Of a stretch of 64,000 nt of DNA, positions 50,970 through 64,000 are shown one piece after another. Made by a program: the position numbers and the translations under genes. How positions within the stretch are numbered: the stretch's first letter is position 1; every line of letters starts with the position of its first letter. The notes beneath the pieces are model-generated. The model searched no databases and was not told where the DNA came from. It saw only the letters and a list, made by a program, of their open reading frames with translations. Origin of the DNA: Desulfatiglandales bacterium (lineage in GTDB: Bacteria; Desulfobacterota; DSM-4660; Desulfatiglandales; Desulfatiglandaceae); assembly GCA_963662465.1 (NCBI GenBank), contig OY759599.1, positions 6,304,001 through 6,368,000 on the forward strand. Direction: 5' to 3'.

Positions 50970-51374
50970 TTATCGCGCAGGCGTGTGGCTCCGGATGTAA
51001 TCGATAATATCCGTTGTAACGGTTCCGGGGCCAAATATTTCCGTAATTCCGACCGCTTTAAGCGCCGGGATATCCTCGTCGGGAATGATGCCGCCTCCCA
51101 GGACCAGCATGTCGTTTACGCCCTTTTTTTTCAGTAATTCCATGACCTTTGGGAAAAGATAGTCGTGGGCGCCGGACAGGATACTCATGGCGATGACATC
51201 CACATCTTCCTGTATGGCGGATTCCACAATTTGCGTGGGCGTTTGTCTTAAACCCGTATAGACCACCTCCATGCCCGCGTTCATGAGGGCCGACGCCACC
51301 ACCTTGATTCCTCTGTCATGGCCATCCAATCCCGGTTTTGCCGCCAGAACCCTTATCTTTTTTGCTTTACCCAT
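50970..51374 (-). CDS. Methylmalonyl-CoA mutase, cobalamin-binding subunit
   Basis: [24 protein letters not shown]. Confidence 0.95.
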
Positions 51375-51389
51375 TTTTTGTTTCTCCTA

Positions 51390-53069
51390 TTAGCCCAGCG
51401 TGTTGATGGGCTGGTATTCGCCGAATACGCTGCGCAATACGTCGCAGATTTCACCAAGGGTCGCATAAACCCGCACGGCATCCAGAATGAGAGGCATCAG
51501 ATTTTCGGTTCCGCGAGCGCCCCGGTCCAGAGCGGCCAGCGTGTTTTTCACGTCTTGGCCGTTTCTCTCCGTCCTCAGTTTTTTGAGACGGCCGATCTGT
51601 TCCGTTCGAACCGCCGGGTTCACCCGCAACAGATTTTTAGGCTTTTCCTCTTCTATGTGAAAGCGGTTAAGGCCCACTACAATCCGCTCTTCCTTTTCAA
51701 TGGCCCGTTGATAGGCGTAAGCACTGTCCTGGATTTCTCGCTGCACGAATCCCTGCTCGATGGCGGCGGGCGCCCCTCCCATCTCGTCGATTTTTTGAAT
51801 GTAGGCGTGGGCCCGGTCATGGATTTCCCGGGTAAGCGCTTCCACGTAATAGGAACCGGCCAGGGGGTCCACTGTGTCGGTTACCCCGGTTTCGTAGGCA
51901 ATCATTTGCTGGGTTTTCAGGGCGATCTGTACCGACTCCTGGGAAGGAAGGCTCAATGCCTCGTCCATGGAGTTGGTATGTAGGCTCTGGGTGCCGCCCA
52001 GAACCGCGGAAAGCGCCTGATAGGCCACCCGAACGATATTGTTCTTGGGTTGCTGGGCGGTTAAGGTACACCCCGCCGTCTGGGTATGAAAGCGAATCAT
52101 CATACTCTTGGGGTTTTTGGCGTGAAAACGCTCTTTCATGATATGGGCCCACAGCTTCCTGGCTGCCCGGTATTTGGCCACTTCTTCCAGAAAATCCAGG
52201 TGGGCGTTGAAAAAGAAGGAGAGTCTGGGGCCGAATTGGTCCACATCCAGCCCGGCTTTGAGGGCCGCGTCCACATAGGCGATGCCGTTGGCCAGGGTGA
52301 AGGCGATTTCCTGCACCGCCGTTGAACCTGCCTCCCGAATATGATACCCGCTGATGCTGATGGTGTTCCAGAGGGGAACCTGCTCGGCGCAATAGGAAAA
52401 GATGTCCGTAATAATGCGCATGGAAGGTTTGGGCGGATAGATATAGGTGCCGCGGGAGGAATATTCCTTTAAAATATCGTTTTGGATGGTCCCCCTCAGT
52501 TTTTTGGGGTCTGCCCCCTGTTTCTCCGCTACCACGATGTACATGGCCAGCAGCACCGCCGCTGGGGCGTTAATGGTCATGGAGGTGCTGACCTTTTCAA
52601 GGGGAATTTCTCGAAACAGGGTTTCCATATCGGCCAGGGAGTCGATGGCCACGCCCACCTTTCCCACTTCCCCGATGGCCATTTCATGGTCCGAATCATA
52701 ACCGATCTGGGTGGGGAGATCAAAGGCCACGGAAAGTCCCGTCTGACCCTGGTCCAGCAGAAAGCGGTATCGTTTATTGGACTCCTCGGCTGAGGCAAAC
52801 CCCGCATACTGCCGCATGGTCCAGAAGCGTCCCCGGTACATGTTAGGCTGAACGCCCCGGGTATAGGGGTATTCGCCCGGGAATCCCAGGTTTGATAAAT
52901 AGTCTTTTTCCACATGGTCCAAGGGCGTATAGAGCCTGTTGATGGGGATTCCGGAGGTATTGACAAATGCCGGTTTTCGTTCCGGCCGTTTGCTGATTTT
53001 CCGGTCAACCTCTTTTGACCATTTTTTCAATGCATCCGTCAGCGTAGCCTGGTTTTTTTCGTCAGACAT
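51390..53069 (-). CDS. Methylmalonyl-CoA mutase, substrate-binding subunit
   Basis: [14 protein letters not shown] (Tyr), [22 protein letters not shown]. Confidence 0.95.
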
Positions 53070-53127
53070 GGGTGATTCTCCATTCTTCCCGTCCCGTTTA
53101 ACGGGGATATAGGCGTTATGCCGGTTT

Positions 53128-54003
53128 TCAGGCGCTTTTCATGACTTCAAGTACGGTTTGCCCCAAATGGGAAAGGCTTGGGGCCACGGTGATGCCGGCC
53201 TGTTCAAGGGCCTTGATCTTGTCTTCGGCTTTGCCCTGGCCGCCGGAAATGATGGCGCCCGCATGGCCCATGCGTTTTCCGGGAGGGGCCGTTTGCCCCG
53301 CAATAAAGGCCACCACCGGTTTACGAAAAGACGCCTCGATATACAGGGCGGCCTCTTCTTCGGCGTTTCCGCCGATTTCCCCGATCAGCACCACCCCTTC
53401 GGTGCCCGGATCTTCCTGGAACCGTTTGAGATGGTCAATGAAGGTGCTGCCGATGATCGGGTCTCCGCCGATGCCGATGCAGGTGGACTGGCCCAATCCC
53501 GCCTGGGTTAACTGGTACACCACTTCATAGGTGAGGGTGCCGCTTCGGGAAATGACGGCCATGCTGCCGGGTCTGTGAATATCTCCGGGCATGATGCCCA
53601 CCTTGGTTTTTCCGGGGGAGATAATGCCCGGACAGTTGGGGCCAATGAGTACGGTGTCTTTGCCTTTCAGGCAACCGGCGACCTTTACCATGTCCAGGGT
53701 GGGAATGCCCTCCGTAATGCACACGATCACCTCGATGCCGCTGGAAATGGCTTCAAGGACCGCATCCGCCGCAAAGGGCGGCGGCACAAAGATGATGGCC
53801 GTGTCGGCGCCTTCCTTTTCCACCACTGCTTCCACCGTGTTGAATACAGGCACCCCTTCGACGGTTTGCCCCCCCTTTCCCGGTGAGACGCCCCCCACCA
53901 CGTTTGTGCCGTAGGCTAACATCTGTTGGGTGTGGAAGGTCCCTTCACGACCGGTCATGCCCTGAACCACAATTCTGCTTTTTTCATCAACCAGTATGCT
54001 CAT
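53128..54003 (-). CDS. sucD: Succinyl-CoA ligase alpha subunit
   Basis: [23 protein letters not shown]. Confidence 0.96.
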
Positions 54004-54005
54004 AA

Positions 54006-55181
54006 TCAGTCTGTCCCCTTAACCTGTTCCGCCACATGGTTCGCCGCTTCGGCCAGATCTTTCGCCAGCAGGAACGATAATTCGGAATTCTCGAGAATTT
54101 TTCGGCCTTCCGCCACATTGGTGCCTTCCAGTCGGACGATCAACGGCACTCGGATTTGACTTTTTTTGGCCGCGGCCACCACGCCTCTCGCCAGAATGTC
54201 GCACCTGAGGATGCCGCCGAAAATGTTGACCAGAATCGCCTTGACCCGCCGATCTTTCAGGATGATTTCAAATCCCTTGGCAATCATTTCTTCACTGGCG
54301 CCGCCCCCCACATCCAGAAAATTGGCCGGTTCCGCACCGGCCGCCTTGATCAGGTCCAGAGTGGCCATAGCGAGGCCCGCCCCGTTGACCATGGCCCCGA
54401 TATTGCCGTCCAGACGAATGTAGTTGAGATGGTACTGCTTGGCGACCAACTCCAGCGGATCCTCTTCGCTGGGGTCGTCCAGGGCCAGGAGTTCCTTCTG
54501 GCGGAACAGGGCGTTATCGTCCAGGTTGATCTTGGCATCAACCGCAAATACCCGCTCCCCCGTTGTAATCACCAGGGGATTGATTTCAACCAGTGAACAG
54601 TCCAGGGTGACGAATATATCATAAATCTTGGTCATTACCGACATCAGCTGTTTGACCACCCCGGGGGCCGGCAACGGATTCAATTTGTAGATCAGGTTTC
54701 GTGATTGATAAGGGAGCCAGCCCGTGGCCGGATCCACGTACTCCTTCCAGATCAGCTCCGGCGTTTTTTGGGCCACCTCCTCGATTTCCATGCCGCCGGC
54801 CTGGCTGAAAATCATTGCCGGCATGGCCATTTTGCGATCGATGACCATGCCCAGGTACAGTTCCCTTTCAATGTCCACCCCCTGTTCCACGAGAACTTTG
54901 TGGACCCTGACGCCGTCAGGTCCTGTCTGGGGCGTCACCAGTGAGGTCTTGAGCAGGGATTCCGTGGTGGTGACCACCTCATAAGGGTAATTGACCACCT
55001 TGACGCCGCCGCCTTTGCCCCGACCGCCGGCGTGAACCTGGGCCTTGACGACCCATGGATGCCCACTGATGATCTGAGTAACCTTGGAGGCCTGGTCCGG
55101 AGAGGACACCACCTGGCCTTCCGGCACCGGAACGCCCGATTGCCTGAGAATGTCTTTTGCCTGATATTCGTGTATTTTCAT
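54006..55181 (-). CDS. sucC: Succinyl-CoA ligase beta subunit
   Basis: [42 protein letters not shown]. Confidence 0.96.
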
Positions 55182-55222
55182 GGGTTGTCCTTCTGTTCAT
55201 GTTGTTTGAATAATAATTTTTT

Positions 55223-55459
55223 TCATGATGCAAAGCGCTTTTCAATATCTCGCATTGCTTTGCCATAATTAACGCCAATCGCCGTTCCAGCATCGACGGC
55301 ATGAACCCTATCCGTGATTTCCTTTTCCCAAGCGGTGTTAACATCATCGGAATTCAAAGATTGGTTATCAAGAAAAAGAAGGAATCTGGCTATTTCCAAC
55401 TGCTTTTTCCTGGGCAAGCTGATTAATTCCGTGGTTAAAGCTTCAATGTTTAGCGCCAT
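55223..55459 (-). CDS. Orphan addiction-module antitoxin
   Basis: LISLP...AWEKEITDR..VDAG pattern; no full toxin follows. Confidence 0.75.
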   Translation of the reverse strand: MALNIEALTTELISLPRKKQLEIARFLLFLDNQSLNSDDVNTAWEKEITDRVHAVDAGTAIGVNYGKAMRDIEKRFAS

Positions 55460-55527
55460 TTTTTGCAGTCCCTTTCTTTACGAGCTTAACGGCTTTCCGT
55501 GAGAAAAAAGAATAGTTACTGAGCAGA

Positions 55528-57078
55528 CTATAACGGACAATTCCCGTGCCGTCTTCCGGGAATGGTTTCCTTTTTGTTTTTGAGCATCATGAGCGCCTTG
55601 ATCAATCTGGGCCGGGTTTTTTCCGGAAAGATGATCTGATCGATGTAACCCAGTTCGGCCGCTTTGAAGGGGCTGGCGAAATTGTTTCGATAATCATCAA
55701 CCAGTTCCTTTCTTTTGGCTTCAGGGTCGTCTGCTTCGGCAAGTTCTTTTCTGAAAATGATATTGACGGCCCCTTCAGGTCCCATGACGGCGATTTCAGC
55801 GGTGGGGTAGGCATAGTTGATATCGCCCCCATGGTGCTTGCTGCTCATAACGTCATAGGCCCCGCCATAGGCCTTTCGGGTGACCACGGTGATCTTCGGC
55901 ACCGTGGCCTCGCAGTAGGCATAAATAATTTTGGCCCCGTGTTTAATGATGCCCCCGTGTTCCTGGCCGACCCCCGGTAGAAACCCCGGCACGTCCACGA
56001 AGGTGATAAGGGGAATATTGAAGCAATCGCAGGTTCGCACGAATCTGGAACATTTCATGGAGGCGTTGATGTCCAGGCATCCCGCCATGTATTTGGGCTG
56101 ATTGGCCACAATCCCGACCGGCATGCCGTTCAAGCGACCGAACCCGATGACCATGTTCTGAGCATAGTGGCGCTGGATTTCCATGAACTGGTGATGGTCC
56201 AGAACCGATTCAATAATATCCTTGATGTCGTAGGGAATCCTGGGATTGGTGGGCACCACGTTGTTCAATTTGGGGTCGATTCGTTCGGGATCATCGGTGC
56301 AGGGGATTGCGGGGGGCATTTCCCGGTAGTTTTGCGGCATATAGGCCAGGATATTTTTGACCCGGTCAAGGGCTGCCTGGTCGGACTCCTCCGCGAAATG
56401 GGCCACGCCGCTCTTGGTGTTGTGGGCCATGGCGCCCCCCAGGGCCTCGGCGGTTACTTCCTCGGCGGTGACGGTTTTAATGACCTGAGGGCCGGTGACG
56501 AACATGTTGCTGGTTTTTTTGACCATGACCGTAAAATCCGTAATGGCCGGTGAATAGACGGCCCCACCGGCGCAGGGCCCCATAATTACCGAGATCTGGG
56601 GGACCACGCCCGAAGACCACACATTCCGCTTGAATATTTCACCGTAGCTCCCCAGGCTGGTGACCCCTTCCTGGATTCTGGCGCCCCCCGAATCGTTCAA
56701 CCCGATAACCGGGGCGCCGTTTTTTAGCGCCAAATCCATTATTTTGCAGACTTTTTCACCAAAAGCGCCACTCAAAGACCCGCCAAATACGGTGAAATCC
56801 TGAGAAAATATGAAGACAGACCGACCATCGATGGCGCCATATCCCGTCACCACCCCGTCACCGGGAATCTTTTTTTTCTGCATGCCGAAATCCTGGCAGC
56901 GATGGACCACGAACTTGTCGATTTCTTCAAAACTGTCTTTGTCAAGCAGGTAGTCGATCCTCTCCCGGGCCGTCAGTTTTCCCCTGGCGTGTTGCGAATC
57001 AATCCTTTTTTGGCCGCCGCCCAGGGCTGCTTCACGATTTCTTCTCTTAAGTTCACTGATTTTCTCTTCTATATCCAT
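55528..57078 (-). CDS. pccB: Acyl-CoA carboxylase carboxyltransferase subunit (propionyl-/methylmalonyl-CoA)
   Basis: [36 protein letters not shown]; start at MDIEEK. Confidence 0.92.
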
Positions 57079-57155
57079 TTGGGTCTCCTTGGGGTTGTGG
57101 TAACAGAAGGGCCGATGCCAAAGCACTGTGCGAACGGAGTGCTGAGTGATGGTTT

Positions 57156-57452
57156 TCAGGAACGCTTGTTTTTCCAGTTCTGGTATTTGTGAAGGTCTTT
57201 TTCCAGATAATAGAGACAGAGCAGCAAAATGAACGCGTCATCGATCTGTCCCAGCAACGGAATAAAGTCAGGAAGGATGTCAATGGGGCTGAGGACATAG
57301 ACAATGGCCAGAACAAAGACGACAATGGATCCGAGAGAAACATCGCGATAGTCCCCTTTCCAATAATCTTTTATCAGCGAGACCAGAAGCTTGAAATCCT
57401 CAAGCAGCCGGCGCCACAAACCGATTTTGACCAGATTATTCCGTTGCATCAT
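57156..57452 (-). CDS. YkvA/DUF1232 small membrane protein
   Basis: [21 protein letters not shown]. Confidence 0.9.
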
Positions 57453-57706: not shown

Positions 57707-58102
57707 ATGACAGAAAAATTAAGGGGTTCCGTCCTGGTTGTGGGCGGAGGGATTGCCGGGATGCAGTCGGCACTGGATCTCGCCAACTCCGGTTACTATG
57801 TGTACCTGCTGGAAAAGAGCCCATCCATCGGGGGGGCCATGTCCCAGTTGGACAAGACCTTTCCCACCAATGACTGCGCCATGTGAATCATCTCTCCCAA
57901 ACTGGTCGAGGTCGGCCGGCATTTAAATATTGAATTGATTACCTATGCGGATCTGGAATCGGTGGAAGGGTCTGCGGGGAATTTCAAGGTGAAAATCAAA
58001 AAGCGCGCTCGAAGCATTGATATGACCCGCTGCACCGGGTGTGGCAGCTGCATCGAGAATTGTCCGGTAACCCATCAGGCGGTTAGTTTCGGGCAGGCAT
58101 GA
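57707..58102 (+). CDS. hdrA: Selenocysteine-containing N-terminal HdrA fragment (131 aa, Sec at codon 60)
   Basis: [47 protein letters not shown]; HdrA homology continues in frame past TGA 57884-57886 to the stop at 58100-58102. Confidence 0.88.
57902..57919 (+). promoter_or_regulatory. Putative bacterial SECIS hairpin
   Basis: CUGGUCG-AGGU-CGGCCGG stem-loop, 15 nt after the UGA, with a G-containing apical loop. Confidence 0.7.
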
Positions 58103-58175
58103 GTGTTCATTTGCGGTCATAAAAAAAAATCAAAACCCAAAACCGGGCTTACCGCCCTACGGAGTCTTTCTTAAA

Positions 58176-58682
58176 ATGAATGATACGAACCCCATGGCGA
58201 ATGAGGCGACTTTAGCCATTGATTATCTGGCTCTGGATCGGCTGGTGGAGGAGAGGTTTAACAACGACAAGGAAAACCTGATCATGATCCTTCAGGCCAT
58301 TCAGGCCCAATATAATTATCTTCCGCGACCCGCTTTGGCCTATCTTTCCGAAAAAATAGAAATCCCCCTCAGCCGTATTTACGGGGTGGCCACCTTCTAC
58401 AGCACCTTTAGCCTCGAACCCCGAGGGAAAAACATTATCAGCGTCTGCCTGGGCACCGCCTGTCATGTGCGGGGGGCCGGCAGAGTGATGGATCGGATTG
58501 AAGATATCTTGCACGTGGAAAACGGAGAAACCACCGAGGATGGTTTGTTCACCCTGGAATCGGTGCGGTGCATCGGTTGCTGCAGTCTGGGTCCGGTGGT
58601 TAAAATCAATGAAGACGTATATGGCCGAATCGCTTCAGAGAACCTGACGCAAATTCTGGATCATTACGGGGAATCCCACTAG
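58176..58682 (+). CDS. NuoE/HydC-like [2Fe-2S] subunit
   Basis: YGVATFY, VCLGTACHVRG, CIGCCSLGP. Confidence 0.93.
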   Translation: MNDTNPMANEATLAIDYLALDRLVEERFNNDKENLIMILQAIQAQYNYLPRPALAYLSEKIEIPLSRIYGVATFYSTFSLEPRGKNIISVCLGTACHVRGAGRVMDRIEDILHVENGETTEDGLFTLESVRCIGCCSLGPVVKINEDVYGRIASENLTQILDHYGESH

Positions 58683-58695
58683 AACAGGGCGGACG

Positions 58696-60603
58696 ATGGA
58701 TATGAAGATTCAGCAAATAACGGATATCGAAGAAATAGGCCGTAAACAAAAGGATGCCCTTTATTTTCCCGAAGGGGTGACCGTCAATACGGGTATGGCG
58801 TCCTGTGGCATTGCGGCGGGGGCTGACAAGACCTTTGCGCGGGCCGCGGCGGAATTCGGTGAAAACAAGGCCATAAAGATTCGAAAGACCGGGTGCCTGG
58901 GGTTTTGTGAAGTGGAGCCCCTGGTGGAAATCTTTAAAAAGGATGGCCCGCGAATTGTATATCGGAACGCAACGGAAGATAAAATCACGGATATCATCAA
59001 CGGCTACATGGAGGGCCGGTTTGACGGGAAACTGATCCTGGGGCAAATGCGCGATCCCAGGTCCCTGCTGGAGGACGACTTCCCAAACCCGCTTCAGGGC
59101 ATCACACCCGTCCCGGAAATACCGTTTCTGGAAGATGTTCCCTTCTATAGCCGGCAGATCAAGATCGCCCTTCGCAACTGCGGTTACATTGACCCCGAAC
59201 GTATCGAAGAATACATGGCCAAAGGGGGTTACAAGGCGTTTCTGTCGGCCCTCGAAGCCGGTCAACCCGAAAGCATCATCGCCGCCATCAAGGACTCGGG
59301 GCTGCGGGGGCGGGGGGGCGGTGGTTTTCCAACGGGGGCCAAATGGGAGAGTTGCGCGGCCCACGAGGGAGAACGCTTTATCATCTGCAACGCCGACGAG
59401 GGGGACCCCGGGGCCTACATGGATCGCAGCATCCTGGAGGGGGATCCCCACACCATTATCGAGGGAATGCTCATCGCGGGTCTGGCCATCGGCGCCAACA
59501 GCGGGTTTCTCTATGTGCGAAACGAATATCCCCTGGCCGTGAAACGGCTGGTCACGGCAATACGCCAGGCCACGGATTACGGTCTTTTGGGGCAAAACAT
59601 CGCGGGCTCCGATTTTTCCTTTGAGATGAAGATATCCACCGGTGCGGGGGCCTTTGTGTGCGGTGAATCCACGGCCCTCATGGCTTCCCTGGAAGGGGAA
59701 GTGGGTCGTCCCAGGGCCAAATATATCCATACGGCGGAAAAAGGATTCCGGGACAACCCCTCCAACCTGAACAACGTGGAAACCTATGCCAATGTGCCGG
59801 CCATTCTGTTAAAGGGCGCCGAGTGGTTTTCCCAGTTGGGAACGGATCGCAGCAAAGGAACCAAGGTATTCAGTCTGGTGGGCAAAATTAAGAATACGGG
59901 TCTCGTGGAAGTGCCCATGGGCACCAGCCTGCGCAGCATCATCTATGAGATGGGGGGCGGGATTCCCAAAAAGAAAGCTTTCAAGGCCGTGCAGACCGGC
60001 GGGCCTTCGGGGGGGTGCATTCCGGAGCAATTTTTGGATCTGGGAGTTGACTTTGATGCCTTGAAAAAGGTGGGGTCCATCATGGGGTCCGGCGGCATGA
60101 TCGTCATGGACCAGGATACCTGCATGGTGGATGTGGCCCGGTATTTCCTGGATTTTCTCAAGGAGGAATCCTGCGGCCAGTGCAACCCCTGCCGGGAAGG
60201 GATAAAACGGATGCTGGAGGTGCTAACCCGCATCTGCGACGGCGAAGGCCGGGAAGGGGATATTGAATTGCTGGAGGAATTGGGCGGCATGGTCAAGAAA
60301 TTTTCCCTCTGCGGGTTGGGTACTTCGGCCCCCAATCCGGTACTCACCACCATCCGCTATTTCAGGGACGAGTATGAGGCCCATATTCGGGACAAAAAAT
60401 GCCCGGCCGGGGTTTGTAAACCCTTGTTTCATTATGAAATTGATGAGAACGCCTGCACCGGTTGCCGGCTATGCGCCCTCAAATGCCCCCAGGAAGCCAT
60501 CACCGGGGAAAAGAAAAAACCCCATCAGCTGGCCCAGGAAAAATGCATCAAGTGCGGCATCTGTTATGAGGCCTGTAAATTTGGCGCCATTGTTATTGCC
60601 TGA
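58696..60603 (+). CDS. NuoF/HydB-like FMN/NAD(H) subunit with an N-terminal thioredoxin-like Fe-S domain and two C-terminal [4Fe-4S] motifs
   Basis: GLRGRGGGGFPTG, NADEGDPGAYMDR, GAGAFVCGE, GGPSGG, ESCGQCNPCREG, two CxxCxxCxxxC. Confidence 0.94.
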   Translation: MDMKIQQITDIEEIGRKQKDALYFPEGVTVNTGMASCGIAAGADKTFARAAAEFGENKAIKIRKTGCLGFCEVEPLVEIFKKDGPRIVYRNATEDKITDIINGYMEGRFDGKLILGQMRDPRSLLEDDFPNPLQGITPVPEIPFLEDVPFYSRQIKIALRNCGYIDPERIEEYMAKGGYKAFLSALEAGQPESIIAAIKDSGLRGRGGGGFPTGAKWESCAAHEGERFIICNADEGDPGAYMDRSILEGDPHTIIEGMLIAGLAIGANSGFLYVRNEYPLAVKRLVTAIRQATDYGLLGQNIAGSDFSFEMKISTGAGAFVCGESTALMASLEGEVGRPRAKYIHTAEKGFRDNPSNLNNVETYANVPAILLKGAEWFSQLGTDRSKGTKVFSLVGKIKNTGLVEVPMGTSLRSIIYEMGGGIPKKKAFKAVQTGGPSGGCIPEQFLDLGVDFDALKKVGSIMGSGGMIVMDQDTCMVDVARYFLDFLKEESCGQCNPCREGIKRMLEVLTRICDGEGREGDIELLEELGGMVKKFSLCGLGTSAPNPVLTTIRYFRDEYEAHIRDKKCPAGVCKPLFHYEIDENACTGCRLCALKCPQEAITGEKKKPHQLAQEKCIKCGICYEACKFGAIVIA

Positions 60604-60621
60604 CAGCTAAAAGGAATACCC

Positions 60622-63600
60622 ATGATAACATTTAAAATCAATAATAAAGAAGTTCAGGGAGAGGAAGGGCAGTATATCCTCGACGTGGCCAAAAAGGTCG
60701 GCATTAAAATCCCCACCCTCTGCCATCATGAGGCCCTGGAGCCGGCAGGCATGTGTAGATTATGCACCGTGGAGCTCTTTGACGGGCGCAGAACCAAATT
60801 CGTGACCGCCTGCAACCACCCCATTTGGGAAGGGATGGAGGTGTTTACGGATACCGAATCCGTCATCGAGGGGCGAAAACTCATTGTGGAGCTGCTGCTG
60901 GCCCGCTGCCCGAATGTGCCGGTGATTAAAGATCTGGCCCAAGAATACGGCATTTCAAAACCCCGGTTTCTGGAAGAGGGAGATGACTGCATTCTCTGCG
61001 GCCTTTGTGTTCGCATGTGCGAAAAGATGGGCAACAGCGCCATCAGCTTCACGGGCCGCGGGGTAGAGATGAAAGTGGATACCCCCTTTCATGTACAGAC
61101 CGAATTCTGCATGGGGTGTGGGGCGTGCGCGTCGGTCTGTCCCACCGGGCATATCAAACTTGAAGACATCGCCAAGCATCAGGTGAAACCCATTCCATCG
61201 GAATACGACATGGGTCTGAAAGGCCGCAAGCCCATTTACGTGCCCTATGCCCAGGCGATTCCCAATACTCCCGTTATTGACCGGGACATGTGTATGCACT
61301 TCAAAACCGGCGGATGCCAGGTATGTACGGAATTCTGCGGGGTGGATGCCATTGATCACATGCAGCAGGATGAAATTATTGAACTGGAAGTGGGGTCCAT
61401 CATTCTGGCGCCGGGGTTTCAACCTTTCGATCCCTCCAAACTGACCCATTACGGATACGGCCGGCATCCCAACGTAATGACGGCAATGGAATTTGAGCGC
61501 ATTTTGTCGGCCTCGGGACCCACCCTGGGACATTTGACGCGGCCCTCCGACGGGGGGGAACCCAAGAAAATTGCCTGGATACAATGCGTGGGTTCCCGGG
61601 AAGAGAATCGTTGCGATCACGGGTATTGTTCTTCCGTGTGCTGCATGTACGCCATCAAGGAGGCGGTCATCGCCAAGGAGCATGCGGGAAGCGATCTGGA
61701 GTGTACCATCTTCTTCATGGATATGCGGACCCACGGCAAGGATTTCGAGCGCTATTATGACGACGCTCGGAATAAGCATGGGGTTCGTTTTATCCGGTCC
61801 CGAATCCCTGCCATTGACATTGTCAAGGGTCGGGATGAACTGGGCATTACCTATGTAAATGAACAGATGACCCCCACGACGGAATCCTTTGATCTGGTGG
61901 TTTTATCCGTGGGTATGGAAACGCCGCCTGAACTGACAGCGTTGGCCCATCGGCTGAATATTGATCTCACCACGGGTCATTTCTGCGACAGTTCCTCCTT
62001 TCGTCCCGTGACCACATCCCGTGAAGGGGTTTTTGTGTGCGGCGCCTTTGCCGGACCCAAGGATATCCCCCAGTCCGTGGTGGAAGCCAGTTCCGCGGCG
62101 GCTGAAGCGGGGGCGCTCCTGAAAGGCGCTCGAAACACCCTGACGAAGCAGGAAACCTTTCCCGAGGAACGGGTCGTTGCGGGTGAGCGCCCCAGAATCG
62201 GCGTTTTTGTCTGCCAGTGCGGCATCAATATCGGTGGGGTGGTGGATGTCCCTTCGGTGAGGGATTACGCAGCCTCCTTGCCCTATGTGGCGTATGTGAC
62301 CGACAACCTATACACCTGTTCCCAGGACACCCAGGAGAGCATAGCCAAGGTTATTCGCGAAAACAACCTGAACCGCATTGTGGTGGCCGCCTGTACGCCT
62401 AAGACCCATGAGGCCCTGTTCCAGGAAACCCTGGTGGCGGCGGGGTTGAACAAGTACCTGTTTGAGATGACCAACATCCGCAACCAGGATTCCTGGGTGC
62501 ATAAGAATGATCCCCAAATGGCCACCCAAAAAGCCATGGATCTGGTGCGCATGGCCGTGGCCAAAGTGGCGCTCATGGAATCCCTTACGGAAACGGAGCT
62601 TGATATCAACCCGAAAGCCCTGGTGGTGGGGGGCGGCATCTCCGGTATGGCGGCGGCACAGAGTCTTTCAGATCAGGGCTATGCGGTTTGTCTGGTGGAG
62701 CGGGAACCATTTCTGGGGGGGCAGGGGAGTCTTCTTTTCAGGACCTGGAAGGGCGAAGATGTGCAGATGAACCTGACCCAAATGATTGAGAAGATCCAGG
62801 CCGATCCGAATATCGATCTGCACCTGAATACGGAACTGACGGACGTTGCGGGGTTTGTGGGGAATTTTAAAAGCACCCTTTCAACCGAAGGCCATGAGAC
62901 TCTGGTGGAGCATGGCGTGGCGGTCATTGCCACGGGCGCCTTTGAACGAAAACCGGATGAATATCTCTACGGTGAAGATGCCCGGGTGTTGACCCATCTG
63001 GAACTGGATCAGCGCTTCATCGGAAACGATCCTTCCTTAAAAAAGATGAAATCCGCCGTCTTTATCCAATGTGTGGGGTCCCGGGAACCGGATCGCCCCT
63101 ATTGTTCTCGCGTGTGCTGCACCCATGCCATGGAAAGCGCGTTGCACCTGAAGAAACTGAATCCCGAAATGCGGGTGGTGGTTCTTTTCCGTGACATTCG
63201 AACTTATGGGGAACGGGAGTATCTTTATCGTGAAGCGCGTCTGGCGGGGGTATTGTTCATTCCCTTTACCGTGGATCGGAAGCCGAGGGTTTTTAAGGAT
63301 CAGGACCAGCTCAAAATCCAGGTGATGGATCCGTTGCTGGGAGAAGAAGTGGTGTTGACGGCGGACCTTTTGTGCCTCGCTTCGGCCATTGTTCCCTACC
63401 GGGATGAAACATTGGCCCAGATGTTCAAGGTTCCCATGAATGCGGATGGCTTTTTTGTGGAAGCCCATGCCAAGCTGGGACCGTCGGAATTTGCCACGGA
63501 CGGCGTCTTTTTATGCGGCATGGACCACTATCCAAAGCCCATCGACGAATCCATTGCCCAGGCCCTGGCTGCCGCCTCCAGGGCCGTGACCCTGCTGGCC

Positions 63601-63855
63601 CGGAAAACCGTTCGCATGAGCGGCACTGTTGCCTGGGTTGACCCACGCCAGTGCAGCAGCTGCGGCGTATGCCTTGCCATTTGCCCCTATTCCGCGCCCA
63701 CCATCCTCGAGAAAGGTCCCTTTGCCGGTAAAATGGAAATTAACCCGGCATTGTGCAAGGGATGCGGTTTATGCGTGGCGTCCTGCAGGTCGGGCGCCCT
63801 CAATCTTAAGGGGTTCGGGGAAAATCAGATCATGGCCATGATCAATGAAATATAG
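60622..63855 (+). CDS. hdrA: Fusion: HydA/NuoG-type N-terminal Fe-S domain + remainder of a tandem (two-flavin) HdrA
   Basis: IPTLC..CRLC..TAC, CILCGLC, CMGCGAC; then SEYDMGLKGRKPIY, QCVGSR..CSSVCC, GVFVCQCG, VVGGGISG, second QCVGSR..CSRVCC, C-terminal 2x[4Fe-4S]. Confidence 0.92.
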   Translation: MITFKINNKEVQGEEGQYILDVAKKVGIKIPTLCHHEALEPAGMCRLCTVELFDGRRTKFVTACNHPIWEGMEVFTDTESVIEGRKLIVELLLARCPNVPVIKDLAQEYGISKPRFLEEGDDCILCGLCVRMCEKMGNSAISFTGRGVEMKVDTPFHVQTEFCMGCGACASVCPTGHIKLEDIAKHQVKPIPSEYDMGLKGRKPIYVPYAQAIPNTPVIDRDMCMHFKTGGCQVCTEFCGVDAIDHMQQDEIIELEVGSIILAPGFQPFDPSKLTHYGYGRHPNVMTAMEFERILSASGPTLGHLTRPSDGGEPKKIAWIQCVGSREENRCDHGYCSSVCCMYAIKEAVIAKEHAGSDLECTIFFMDMRTHGKDFERYYDDARNKHGVRFIRSRIPAIDIVKGRDELGITYVNEQMTPTTESFDLVVLSVGMETPPELTALAHRLNIDLTTGHFCDSSSFRPVTTSREGVFVCGAFAGPKDIPQSVVEASSAAAEAGALLKGARNTLTKQETFPEERVVAGERPRIGVFVCQCGINIGGVVDVPSVRDYAASLPYVAYVTDNLYTCSQDTQESIAKVIRENNLNRIVVAACTPKTHEALFQETLVAAGLNKYLFEMTNIRNQDSWVHKNDPQMATQKAMDLVRMAVAKVALMESLTETELDINPKALVVGGGISGMAAAQSLSDQGYAVCLVEREPFLGGQGSLLFRTWKGEDVQMNLTQMIEKIQADPNIDLHLNTELTDVAGFVGNFKSTLSTEGHETLVEHGVAVIATGAFERKPDEYLYGEDARVLTHLELDQRFIGNDPSLKKMKSAVFIQCVGSREPDRPYCSRVCCTHAMESALHLKKLNPEMRVVVLFRDIRTYGEREYLYREARLAGVLFIPFTVDRKPRVFKDQDQLKIQVMDPLLGEEVVLTADLLCLASAIVPYRDETLAQMFKVPMNADGFFVEAHAKLGPSEFATDGVFLCGMDHYPKPIDESIAQALAAASRAVTLLARKTVRMSGTVAWVDPRQCSSCGVCLAICPYSAPTILEKGPFAGKMEINPALCKGCGLCVASCRSGALNLKGFGENQIMAMINEI

Positions 63856-63879
63856 TTTATAGACCGGGAGGAAACATGT

Positions 63880-64000
63880 ATGGGAGCCGTTGACCTGGAC
63901 CAATGCGATCCTGATTTTGCAAAAGAATTGGCCCGACAGCCTGAAGCCGAAAAAATATCCGCCTGTTTTGTATGCCGTACCTGCGTTGCCGGGTGTCCCA
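63880..64000 (+). CDS. hdrC: HdrC-like Fe-S subunit, runs off the window
   Basis: GGAGG RBS; MGAVDLDQCDPDFAKEL..SACFVCRTCVAGCP. Confidence 0.8.
   Translation, partial: MGAVDLDQCDPDFAKELARQPEAEKISACFVCRTCVAGCP

Follow-up and report, generated by a model that had tools for sequence, protein, structure and literature searches.

The window analysed here is a stretch of 64,000 nucleotides from a Desulfatiglandales bacterium (assembly GCA_963662465.1, contig OY759599.1, positions 6,304,001 to 6,368,000). At its 3' end lies an operon in which hdrA is split around the genes of a HydABC/NuoEFG-like (Bfu) module. An earlier reading of the window, made without database searches (the sequence-only reading), gave the gene order as hdrA N-half, nuoE-like gene, nuoF-like gene, large open reading frame (ORF) and hdrC, and this was borne out, with all of them on the forward strand, by the ORF calls. 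The features, in window coordinates, are:

57707-58102, forward strand: hdrA N-half (131 aa with selenocysteine, Sec, at position 60), carrying the GxGxxG strand that binds flavin adenine dinucleotide (FAD), the Cys57-x-x-Sec60 pair and the first CxxCxxCxxxCP half of the inserted ferredoxin domain.
57884-57886, forward strand: in-frame TGA, the probable Sec60 codon, at a conserved Cys position and with codon interchange among relatives.
57902-57919, forward strand: 7-bp hairpin with a 4-nt loop resembling a selenocysteine insertion sequence (SECIS), starting 16 nt past the TGA (structure and codon conservation).
58176-58682, forward strand: bfuC (NuoE/HydC-like), with [2Fe-2S] ligands C91, C96, C132 and C136 (C1; Pfam).
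58696-60603, forward strand: bfuB (NuoF/HydB-like, 635 aa), with the flavin mononucleotide (FMN)/NAD site and the B1, B2-site, B5-site and B3/B4 ligands (Pfam).
60622-63855, forward strand: large ORF of 1077 aa, with a BfuA head, the C-half of HdrA unit 1 and then HdrA unit 2.
60622-61170, forward strand: BfuA head of the large ORF (aa 1-183), with A1 [2Fe-2S] and A2 and A4 [4Fe-4S] (Pfam and motifs).
61192-62136, forward strand: C-half of HdrA unit 1 (aa 191-505), with the second half of the inserted ferredoxin domain, the remainder of TrxR1, E292 and K346.
62185-63855, forward strand: HdrA unit 2 (aa 522-1077), with an N-terminal cluster domain, TrxR2 without the insert and a C-terminal 2[4Fe-4S] domain.
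63880-64000 in the window, ending at about 64356, forward strand: hdrC (Pfam, translation).
About 64430-65302, outside the window, forward strand: hdrB, 3' of hdrC, with two intact CCG motifs.

The composition of this layout is solid. Pfam returned only Fe-S and FAD families for the large ORF, with no H-cluster and no molybdopterin domain, in agreement with what had been claimed for it.

The two parts of HdrA were compared with solved HdrA chains, an alignment that the sequence-only reading had proposed. On 5odc_A, residues 146-259 are covered by the small ORF (its residues 9-122) and residues 260-563 by the large ORF from its residue 191 onward. The halves abut with neither gap nor overlap, and they do likewise on 8rvu_a (153-267 and 268-574). 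The cut parts the two Cys motifs of HdrA's inserted ferredoxin domain. The continuation of HdrA was thus found where it had been predicted, inside 60622-63855 and behind a HydA/NuoG-type head, residues 19-182 of which match the BfuA chain of the WOR-Bfu enzyme (9mqx_A, E 1e-43). Unit 1 has E292 and K346 at the positions of 5odc_A E356 and K409, and the four-Cys TrxR cluster motif (C322/336/340/341) is present. K346 and E292 are both invariant across 119 aligned sequences, and Lys occupies the K409 position in all of the best 120 homologues. All four ferredoxin half-motifs are also invariant among the aligned relatives, a pattern that fits four clusters, two of which would be shared between the chains.

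The earlier claim that HdrA begins in a 131-aa ORF holds for the identity of the N-half, but the length requires read-through of a TGA that had gone unmentioned. Under translation table 11 the small ORF stops after codon 59, and the small subunit is therefore easily missed by gene callers that use this table. The corresponding codon was readable in 34 related loci and is TGA in 32, TGC in one and TGT in one; protein conservation is 0.94 and 0.87 on the two sides of the TGA. The six hairpin codons that follow it are identical in all 34 TGA loci (the 32 relatives, the window and a second copy in the same genome), whereas at 57 other conserved codons the codon identity averages 0.60, and they are changed in both Cys-type loci; L035 and L046 are of the Cys type. 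A 60-nt fold around the hairpin was no more stable than shuffled sequences (z -0.46), so the case for a SECIS rests on codon conservation. The genome has Sec machinery, with tRNA-Sec and selB over the cut-off in a test that covered these two. With an in-frame UGA at a Cys-aligned site, a SECIS-like hairpin downstream and Sec machinery all present, the TGA at 57884-57886 very probably encodes selenocysteine. This residue had been overlooked by the sequence-only reading. Selenium in HdrA is not new, since Desulfobacterium autotrophicum is known to have HdrA and HdrL with Sec (PMC2702500; here and below, publications are cited for those portions of their text that were covered). Eleven of the 15 HdrA FPTxDC motifs in the window's genome have TGA at the Sec site.

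The in-frame TGA could also be taken as the mark of an assembly artefact, or of an hdrA killed by an insertion and a nonsense codon. A related locus (L047; loci, genomes and contigs are numbered L, G and C) might seem to agree, as its whole operon is broken by several frameshifts; these are probably sequencing errors of its assembly. A genome scan with residues 1-293 of the large ORF as query returned 45 loci from 43 genomes, counted by titles, and 43 of the loci match across the whole junction. The carriers are, again by titles, mostly Desulfobacterales-type or deltaproteobacterial, with one archaeon. The small ORF lies upstream in 35 of the 45 loci (clipped by the contig start in one), and in the remaining 10 the contig extends no further than 2531 bp upstream. 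The order therefore recurs and is not unique to this assembly, a point on which the sequence-only reading had suggested a synteny search. An artefact or dead gene is already contradicted by the 45 loci with their synteny, by the second copy in the same genome, by the interchange of TGA, TGC and TGT with a conserved hairpin and by the conservation on both sides of the TGA, which make it extremely improbable. The split layout is real and conserved, and is no quirk of assembly.

FAD site 1, and with it the two clusters of the inserted ferredoxin domain, is very likely made complete by the small selenoprotein. The earlier proposal that the first FAD site is assembled from two polypeptides is supported by the exact complementarity of the halves, the conserved synteny, the invariant Cys ligands in both halves and natural fusions of HdrA-N to BfuC (below); assembly of the chains is strongly inferred. 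Counted across both genes, Cys57 is 221 residues from K346, the same distance as between Cys59 and Lys280 of BamE, which was compared through the residue numbers in a preprint (bioRxiv 10.64898/2026.04.10.717634) and not through its sequence. Because the spacings are equal, the small subunit most likely carries the pair that is placed between FAD and the low-potential cluster. The natural split offers a way to test what the CxxC/U pair does, the pair being on a small subunit of its own.

The Bfu part was examined for the features of a bifurcating module. BfuB has the motifs GDPGAYM, GAFVCGE and GGPSG together with the extra Cys sites, in keeping with the GDPGAxM, GAFVCGE and GGPSG features and extra Fe-S domains noted earlier for the NuoF-like subunit. 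The ligands are C493/496/499/539 (B1), C37/67/71/162 (B2-site), C476/H564/C569/C574 (B5-site) and eight Cys (B3/B4); the site labels in BfuB and BfuC come from alignment to 8oh5_B and 9bov_B and partly from recall. The B2 and B5 sites may hold zinc (PMC11829005). The FMN site, the B1-B5 ligand sites and C1 of BfuC were all found, as were at least A1 and A2 in the BfuA head, and no A3 motif was seen in its residues 1-183. In Bfu enzymes without A3, A4 is the entry for the third substrate (PMC9304861), and the module resembles BfuABC Type 1 in its BfuBC core ligands and in a BfuA that has A1, A2 and A4 and a fused third-substrate domain (PMC9304861).

By its sequence, BfuB retains the ligand sites by which bifurcating enzymes are told from non-bifurcating homologues. 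Sequence similarity is no proof of bifurcation (PMC5861303), and the NuoEFG-like part might be an ordinary NAD(H) diaphorase that does not bifurcate and stands at the exit port in place of ferredoxin. That is very unlikely, given that the B2-B5 ligand sites, absent from non-bifurcating homologues (PMC9304861), are kept and that the nine best solved matches of BfuB are long HydB/Bfu-type chains (8oh5_B, 9bov_B, 7q4v_B and 7t2r_B at the top). The earlier suggestion that one complex joins a bifurcating-type HydABC/Bfu module to HdrA is supported by inference, on the same basis as the two-chain FAD site.

The same cannot be said of a complete second HdrA unit, or of wiring to two working HdrA flavins, both of which had been proposed. 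Unit 2 has no inserted ferredoxin domain and no FPTxDCxxC motif (CxxC/U pair), and D796 and E838 stand where 5odc_A has E356 and K409. Of the best 120 homologues, 115 reach the motif in unit 2, where the residue at the K409 position is Glu in 79, Asp in 26, Lys in 3 and another residue in 7, against Lys in unit 1 of all 120. K409 and E356 are described as key bifurcation residues (PMC12054007), and in BamE the bifurcating FAD, with Lys280, is reported to belong to unit 1, the FAD of unit 2 being structural and non-bifurcating (bioRxiv 10.64898/2026.04.10.717634). As unit 2 lacks the insert, the CxxC/U pair and equivalents of K409/E356, all of them marks of bifurcating HdrA, only FAD 1 probably bifurcates.

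Relatives with fused genes bear on how the module is attached. Full-junction matches occur in 8 of 300 other genomes drawn evenly from the phylum, and only these 8 were used, because the search at E 1e-40, with 143 of 301 genomes, also counts matches to the head only. Of the 8, 5 have the N-half fused to BfuC, 2 have it separate and 1 (G040) has it at a distance. HdrA-N is also fused to BfuC in the archaeal locus (L046), and a search with this fusion found both parts in order in 117 of the best 120 matches, 21 of which carry a long N-terminal extension, as in single-type HdrA. Since such proteins join HdrA-N to BfuC, and BfuA is joined to HdrA-C, the cassette in the fused forms is tethered to the inserted domain at both ends. 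At L043:2027-3830 a 600-aa single-unit BfuA::HdrA fusion, followed by mvhD, forms the counterpart of the longer N-half::BfuC fusions; insertion of bfuCBA therefore also occurs in single-type HdrA. In the simplest history, in-frame insertion of bfuCBA into hdrA would have parted the two Cys motifs of the ferredoxin domain, and the N-half would have been released later, leaving the separate genes now seen in the window's lineage. The unit 1 tree was poorly supported and was not used for the order of events. In G040 the two distant parts lie on one contig (C40, 3423-4304 and 26133 onward; L066 and L068) and both look intact; a second, stand-alone N-half, with Cys, is found on contig C3 of that genome.

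The second split copy in the window's genome (L002:4486-5808 and L002:8878-12726; G000:C1, about 1.068-1.077 Mb) is 92% identical to the window copy in the Bfu part and only 53% in unit 2, which suggests that it is a mosaic. This copy has a C-terminal glycine-cleavage-H-like domain (PF01597), and the gene upstream of it encodes two Cys-rich repeats and a similar domain; the lipoyl lysine usual for such domains was not obvious by eye. L004 is arranged in the same way.

The genes that follow the large ORF differ among relatives. Seven of the 45 loci end inside the large ORF. In the 38 that are complete there, mvhD comes directly next in 30, and in one it comes after a second tandem hdrA; hdrC-hdrB follows in five and none of the queried genes in two. 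In 25 loci mvhD is followed by three genes, the last encoding an FAD/NAD oxidoreductase (flxA-like); we take these to be flxDCBA on the basis of the Flx-Hdr gene order. Their presence with mvhD in most relatives, which the sequence-only reading had overlooked, implies that the MvhD input port has another donor. MvhD of split loci is short, at 137-140 aa. The archaeal locus has hdrC, hdrB, mvhD and flx-like genes all together, and the window copy belongs to the hdrCB minority type. Among cultured carriers, Desulfatitalea alkaliphila (L024) is of the mvhD-flx type and strain NaphS2 (L028) shares the hdrCB type.

The inserted domain is the low-potential exit in BamE (bioRxiv 10.64898/2026.04.10.717634) and the anticipated exit in methanogen HdrA, where it binds FmdF/MvhB (PMC12350162). 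By analogy, Bfu would sit at the low-potential exit domain of HdrA; that this domain is the insertion site had been overlooked by the sequence-only reading. A mechanism can be proposed on this basis, in which the direction of electron flow is hypothetical. One soluble complex, (HdrA-N)(BfuC)(BfuB)(BfuA::HdrA-C::HdrA2) with HdrC and HdrB, would receive mid-potential electrons at the C-terminal ferredoxin/MvhD port, from NADH via Flx-like proteins in most relatives; the window copy would need MvhD in trans. FAD 1 would send one electron to HdrC/HdrB and a disulfide, perhaps that of DsrC, an acceptor proposed for related systems (PMC5947623). The other would pass by Cys57/Sec60 and the inserted ferredoxin clusters to BfuA cluster A4, and the BfuBC core would split these electrons of about -400 mV again, to ferredoxin (Fd) and NAD+. 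The net reaction, reversible, would be 3 NADH + 2 RSSR + 2 Fd(ox) -> 3 NAD+ + 4 RSH + 2 Fd(red). Two bifurcations in series, HdrA first and Bfu second, are considered probable, if narrowly so. Held more tentatively, at somewhat under even confidence, is the fuller reading of a widespread enzyme in which HdrA hands its low-potential electron, through a ferredoxin domain made of two chains, to a covalently attached Bfu core for a second splitting. The bifurcations would then follow each other in the reverse of the order in class II benzoyl-CoA reductase (BCRII), with the FAD site and its Cys/Sec gate supplied by a separate 14-kDa selenoprotein.

The energetics were calculated with potentials of -280 mV for NADH, -500 mV for ferredoxin and -140 mV for the disulfide (CoM-S-S-CoB; PMC9304861). 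The computed low branch of HdrA, about -420 mV, is close to the Bfu midpoint of -390 mV. With the -140 mV disulfide, one-step coupling comes to +15 kJ and series coupling to -12 kJ. If the series mechanism is true, NADH could reduce -500 mV ferredoxin with a disulfide as the sole pulling acceptor (3 NADH : 2 RSSR : 2 Fd), and this would explain how sulfate reducers and other anaerobes obtain low-potential ferredoxin from NADH despite the weak driving force of the disulfide.

Several observations weigh against the series mechanism and the predicted complex. A covalent position does not prove an electron path. An acceptor at -200 mV leaves series coupling uphill (+12 kJ; one-step coupling is also uphill). 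The distance in G040 is about 22 kb, with the N-half and bfuC placed upstream of bfuB and the large ORF. AlphaFold2 monomer models of the full large ORF (8 sequences) and of its residues 1-513 (119 sequences) had means of 59.6 and 70.0 in pLDDT (the predicted local distance difference test); the ferredoxin region is below 50 in both, as are most of residues 125-244, and the models give no information on half-motif pairing. Foldseek with the residues 1-513 model matched HdrA and BfuA/NuoG chains only. The window operon has no mvhD, none of the genome's 16 MvhD matches lies near it, and the window copy is consequently without an encoded mid-potential input. Most mvhD-flx loci, for their part, have no hdrB or hdrC match in the fetched flanks. 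Finally, in HdrL/type III HdrA, NADH has been proposed to be taken up at the inserted domain (PMC2702500, PMC12054007), the GltD insert being an entry rather than an exit (PMC12054007).

These last points fit a reading in which Bfu is an electron input: NADH, with or without reduced ferredoxin, would feed A4, and electrons would pass through the inserted domain and Cys/Sec to FAD 1, here a relay and not bifurcating, and on to HdrC/HdrB, giving an NAD(H)/Fd:disulfide oxidoreductase. The window copy has hdrC-hdrB and no mvhD, like five of the 45 related loci. Moreover, the genome encodes an HdrL that shares 72% identity with unit 2 and falls among the split copies in the tree (98/97 support), and a clade of split copies only was rejected (p-AU 0.03, for a group picked post hoc from the tree, with L002, L046 and one duplicate row left out). 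Against an input role stand the invariant K346 and E292, the retained C-terminal ferredoxin motifs, the full ferredoxin-binding set of BfuB and, in most relatives, a second NAD(H) module on the MvhD side. The input relay is on the whole unlikely, yet it stays under consideration, above all for the window copy, because no MvhD-port input is encoded there and mvhD-flx loci mostly lack hdrBC.

Among the closest known systems is the BCRII complex BamDEFGHI of Geobacter metallireducens, which also has a HydABC-type module, an HdrBC-like high-potential branch and a fused HdrA dimer, where one FAD (Lys, CxxC pair) bifurcates and the other does not. In BCRII, however, BamE is an intact single chain, BamI is separate and feeds the C-terminal ferredoxin domain/BamF (MvhD-type) input, and the inserted domain feeds BamBC, whereas here BfuA is fused into the inserted domain, HdrA is split, the pair is CxxU and no W-enzyme genes were seen in the operon. 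An intact BamE, a separate BamI, a long BamF and a BamBC tungsten module are all missing from the locus. That the Bfu-HdrA coupling of BCRII is structurally solved, with different wiring, had been overlooked by the sequence-only reading. As it is the sole solved wiring of this kind (bioRxiv 10.64898/2026.04.10.717634), and as the A1/A2/A4 set of the BfuA head is that reported for Bam-type BfuA (PMC9304861), the head might swing to the C-terminal ferredoxin domain/MvhD, where NADH and reduced ferredoxin would confurcate into FAD 1 and the inserted domain would pass very low-potential electrons to an outside acceptor. Such wiring is quite improbable: only 17 residues separate the last BfuA ligand (C173) from HdrA residue I191, fused forms have BfuC attached to the inserted domain's other half, BamF, which binds BamI, is more than 100 aa longer than the MvhD (137-140 aa) of the split loci, and no BamBC-like acceptor was seen adjoining the operon among the genes scanned.

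In HdrL/type III HdrA, too, the inserted ferredoxin domain holds an NAD(P)H module between its two Cys motifs (PMC2702500, PMC12054007), but that module consists of one GltD-like flavoprotein domain within an unbroken chain and enters about 25 residues downstream of the point where, here, a three-gene FMN/Fe-S cassette splits the gene; neither a GltD-like domain nor a continuous chain was found. The genome has three HdrL-sized paralogues, one of which shares the scaffold and is followed by mvhD and flx-like ORFs. The position of an HdrL among the split copies suggests that a single scaffold can take either NAD module, or that unit 2 undergoes recombination. FlxABCD-HdrABC/Hdr-Flox has in common with the family the order hdrA-mvhD-flx-like of most relatives, and with the window copy hdrC-hdrB (PMC5947623); it differs in its intact HdrA and the absence of a Bfu module, and the window operon has no mvhD/flx genes with its hdr genes. 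Methanogen HdrABC-MvhADG and Elp-Hdr (5odc, 8rvu) share the TrxR-type FAD domain, K409/E356 and the inserted domain as a polyferredoxin docking site (PMC12350162), but are built on a homodimer of intact HdrA, with the exit partner (MvhB/FmdF) bound non-covalently.

A split HdrA was not found described in the literature. In the covered text, nuoEFG is co-located with hdrA and mvhD in Desulfotignum phosphitoxidans, with no split or fusion mentioned (PMC4046663), HdrABC-MvhD and NuoEFG are taken as distinct complexes in a study of Desulfatiglans (PMC13343851), and PMC5736913, PMC11237513, PMC9723677, PMC5861303 and PMC5109826 contain no description of a split HdrA. A full-text search also found none, with a coverage that excluded Pereira 2011, Huwiler 2019 and Appel 2021, the last being where a prior description would be likeliest; the supplementary text of Schut 2022 gave no match, its member table and the supplements of the BCRII preprint lying outside the coverage. 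The locus is a conserved, uncharacterised variant in which two known modules are joined at a port different from that of BCRII. In the literature surveyed, BCRII is the only complex in which the two kinds of bifurcation module have been shown to be coupled, and the split family appears to be a second and common solution, with the Bfu module on the other port.

Two RNA runs contained 0.07-0.08 of the words of the locus, and the listed contigs were short and mostly divergent. One sequencing run of unrecorded kind held several pieces identical to the locus, and no listed piece lay across the TGA. A promoter scan gave 3 weak sites against 1.0 expected and was not used. Upstream of the operon, on the reverse strand at 50970-57452 of the window, lies a divergent cluster whose translations presumably represent propionyl-CoA carboxylase, succinyl-CoA synthetase and methylmalonyl-CoA mutase. 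The cluster is also upstream in L003, L005, L008, L013 and L028, and its recurrence in close relatives may reflect shared ancestry only. Beyond the window end, hdrB is followed by sixA (L001:11322-11786), likewise in L003, L008 and L028, and further on by ORFs that by eye resemble a transposase and a serine recombinase (L001:14175-19999). The 15 HdrA FPTxDC motifs of G000 are accompanied by the three HdrL-sized proteins, 16 MvhD matches (9 with TGA) and several other Bfu-type modules, and the Hdr/Bfu set of this genome is unusually large.

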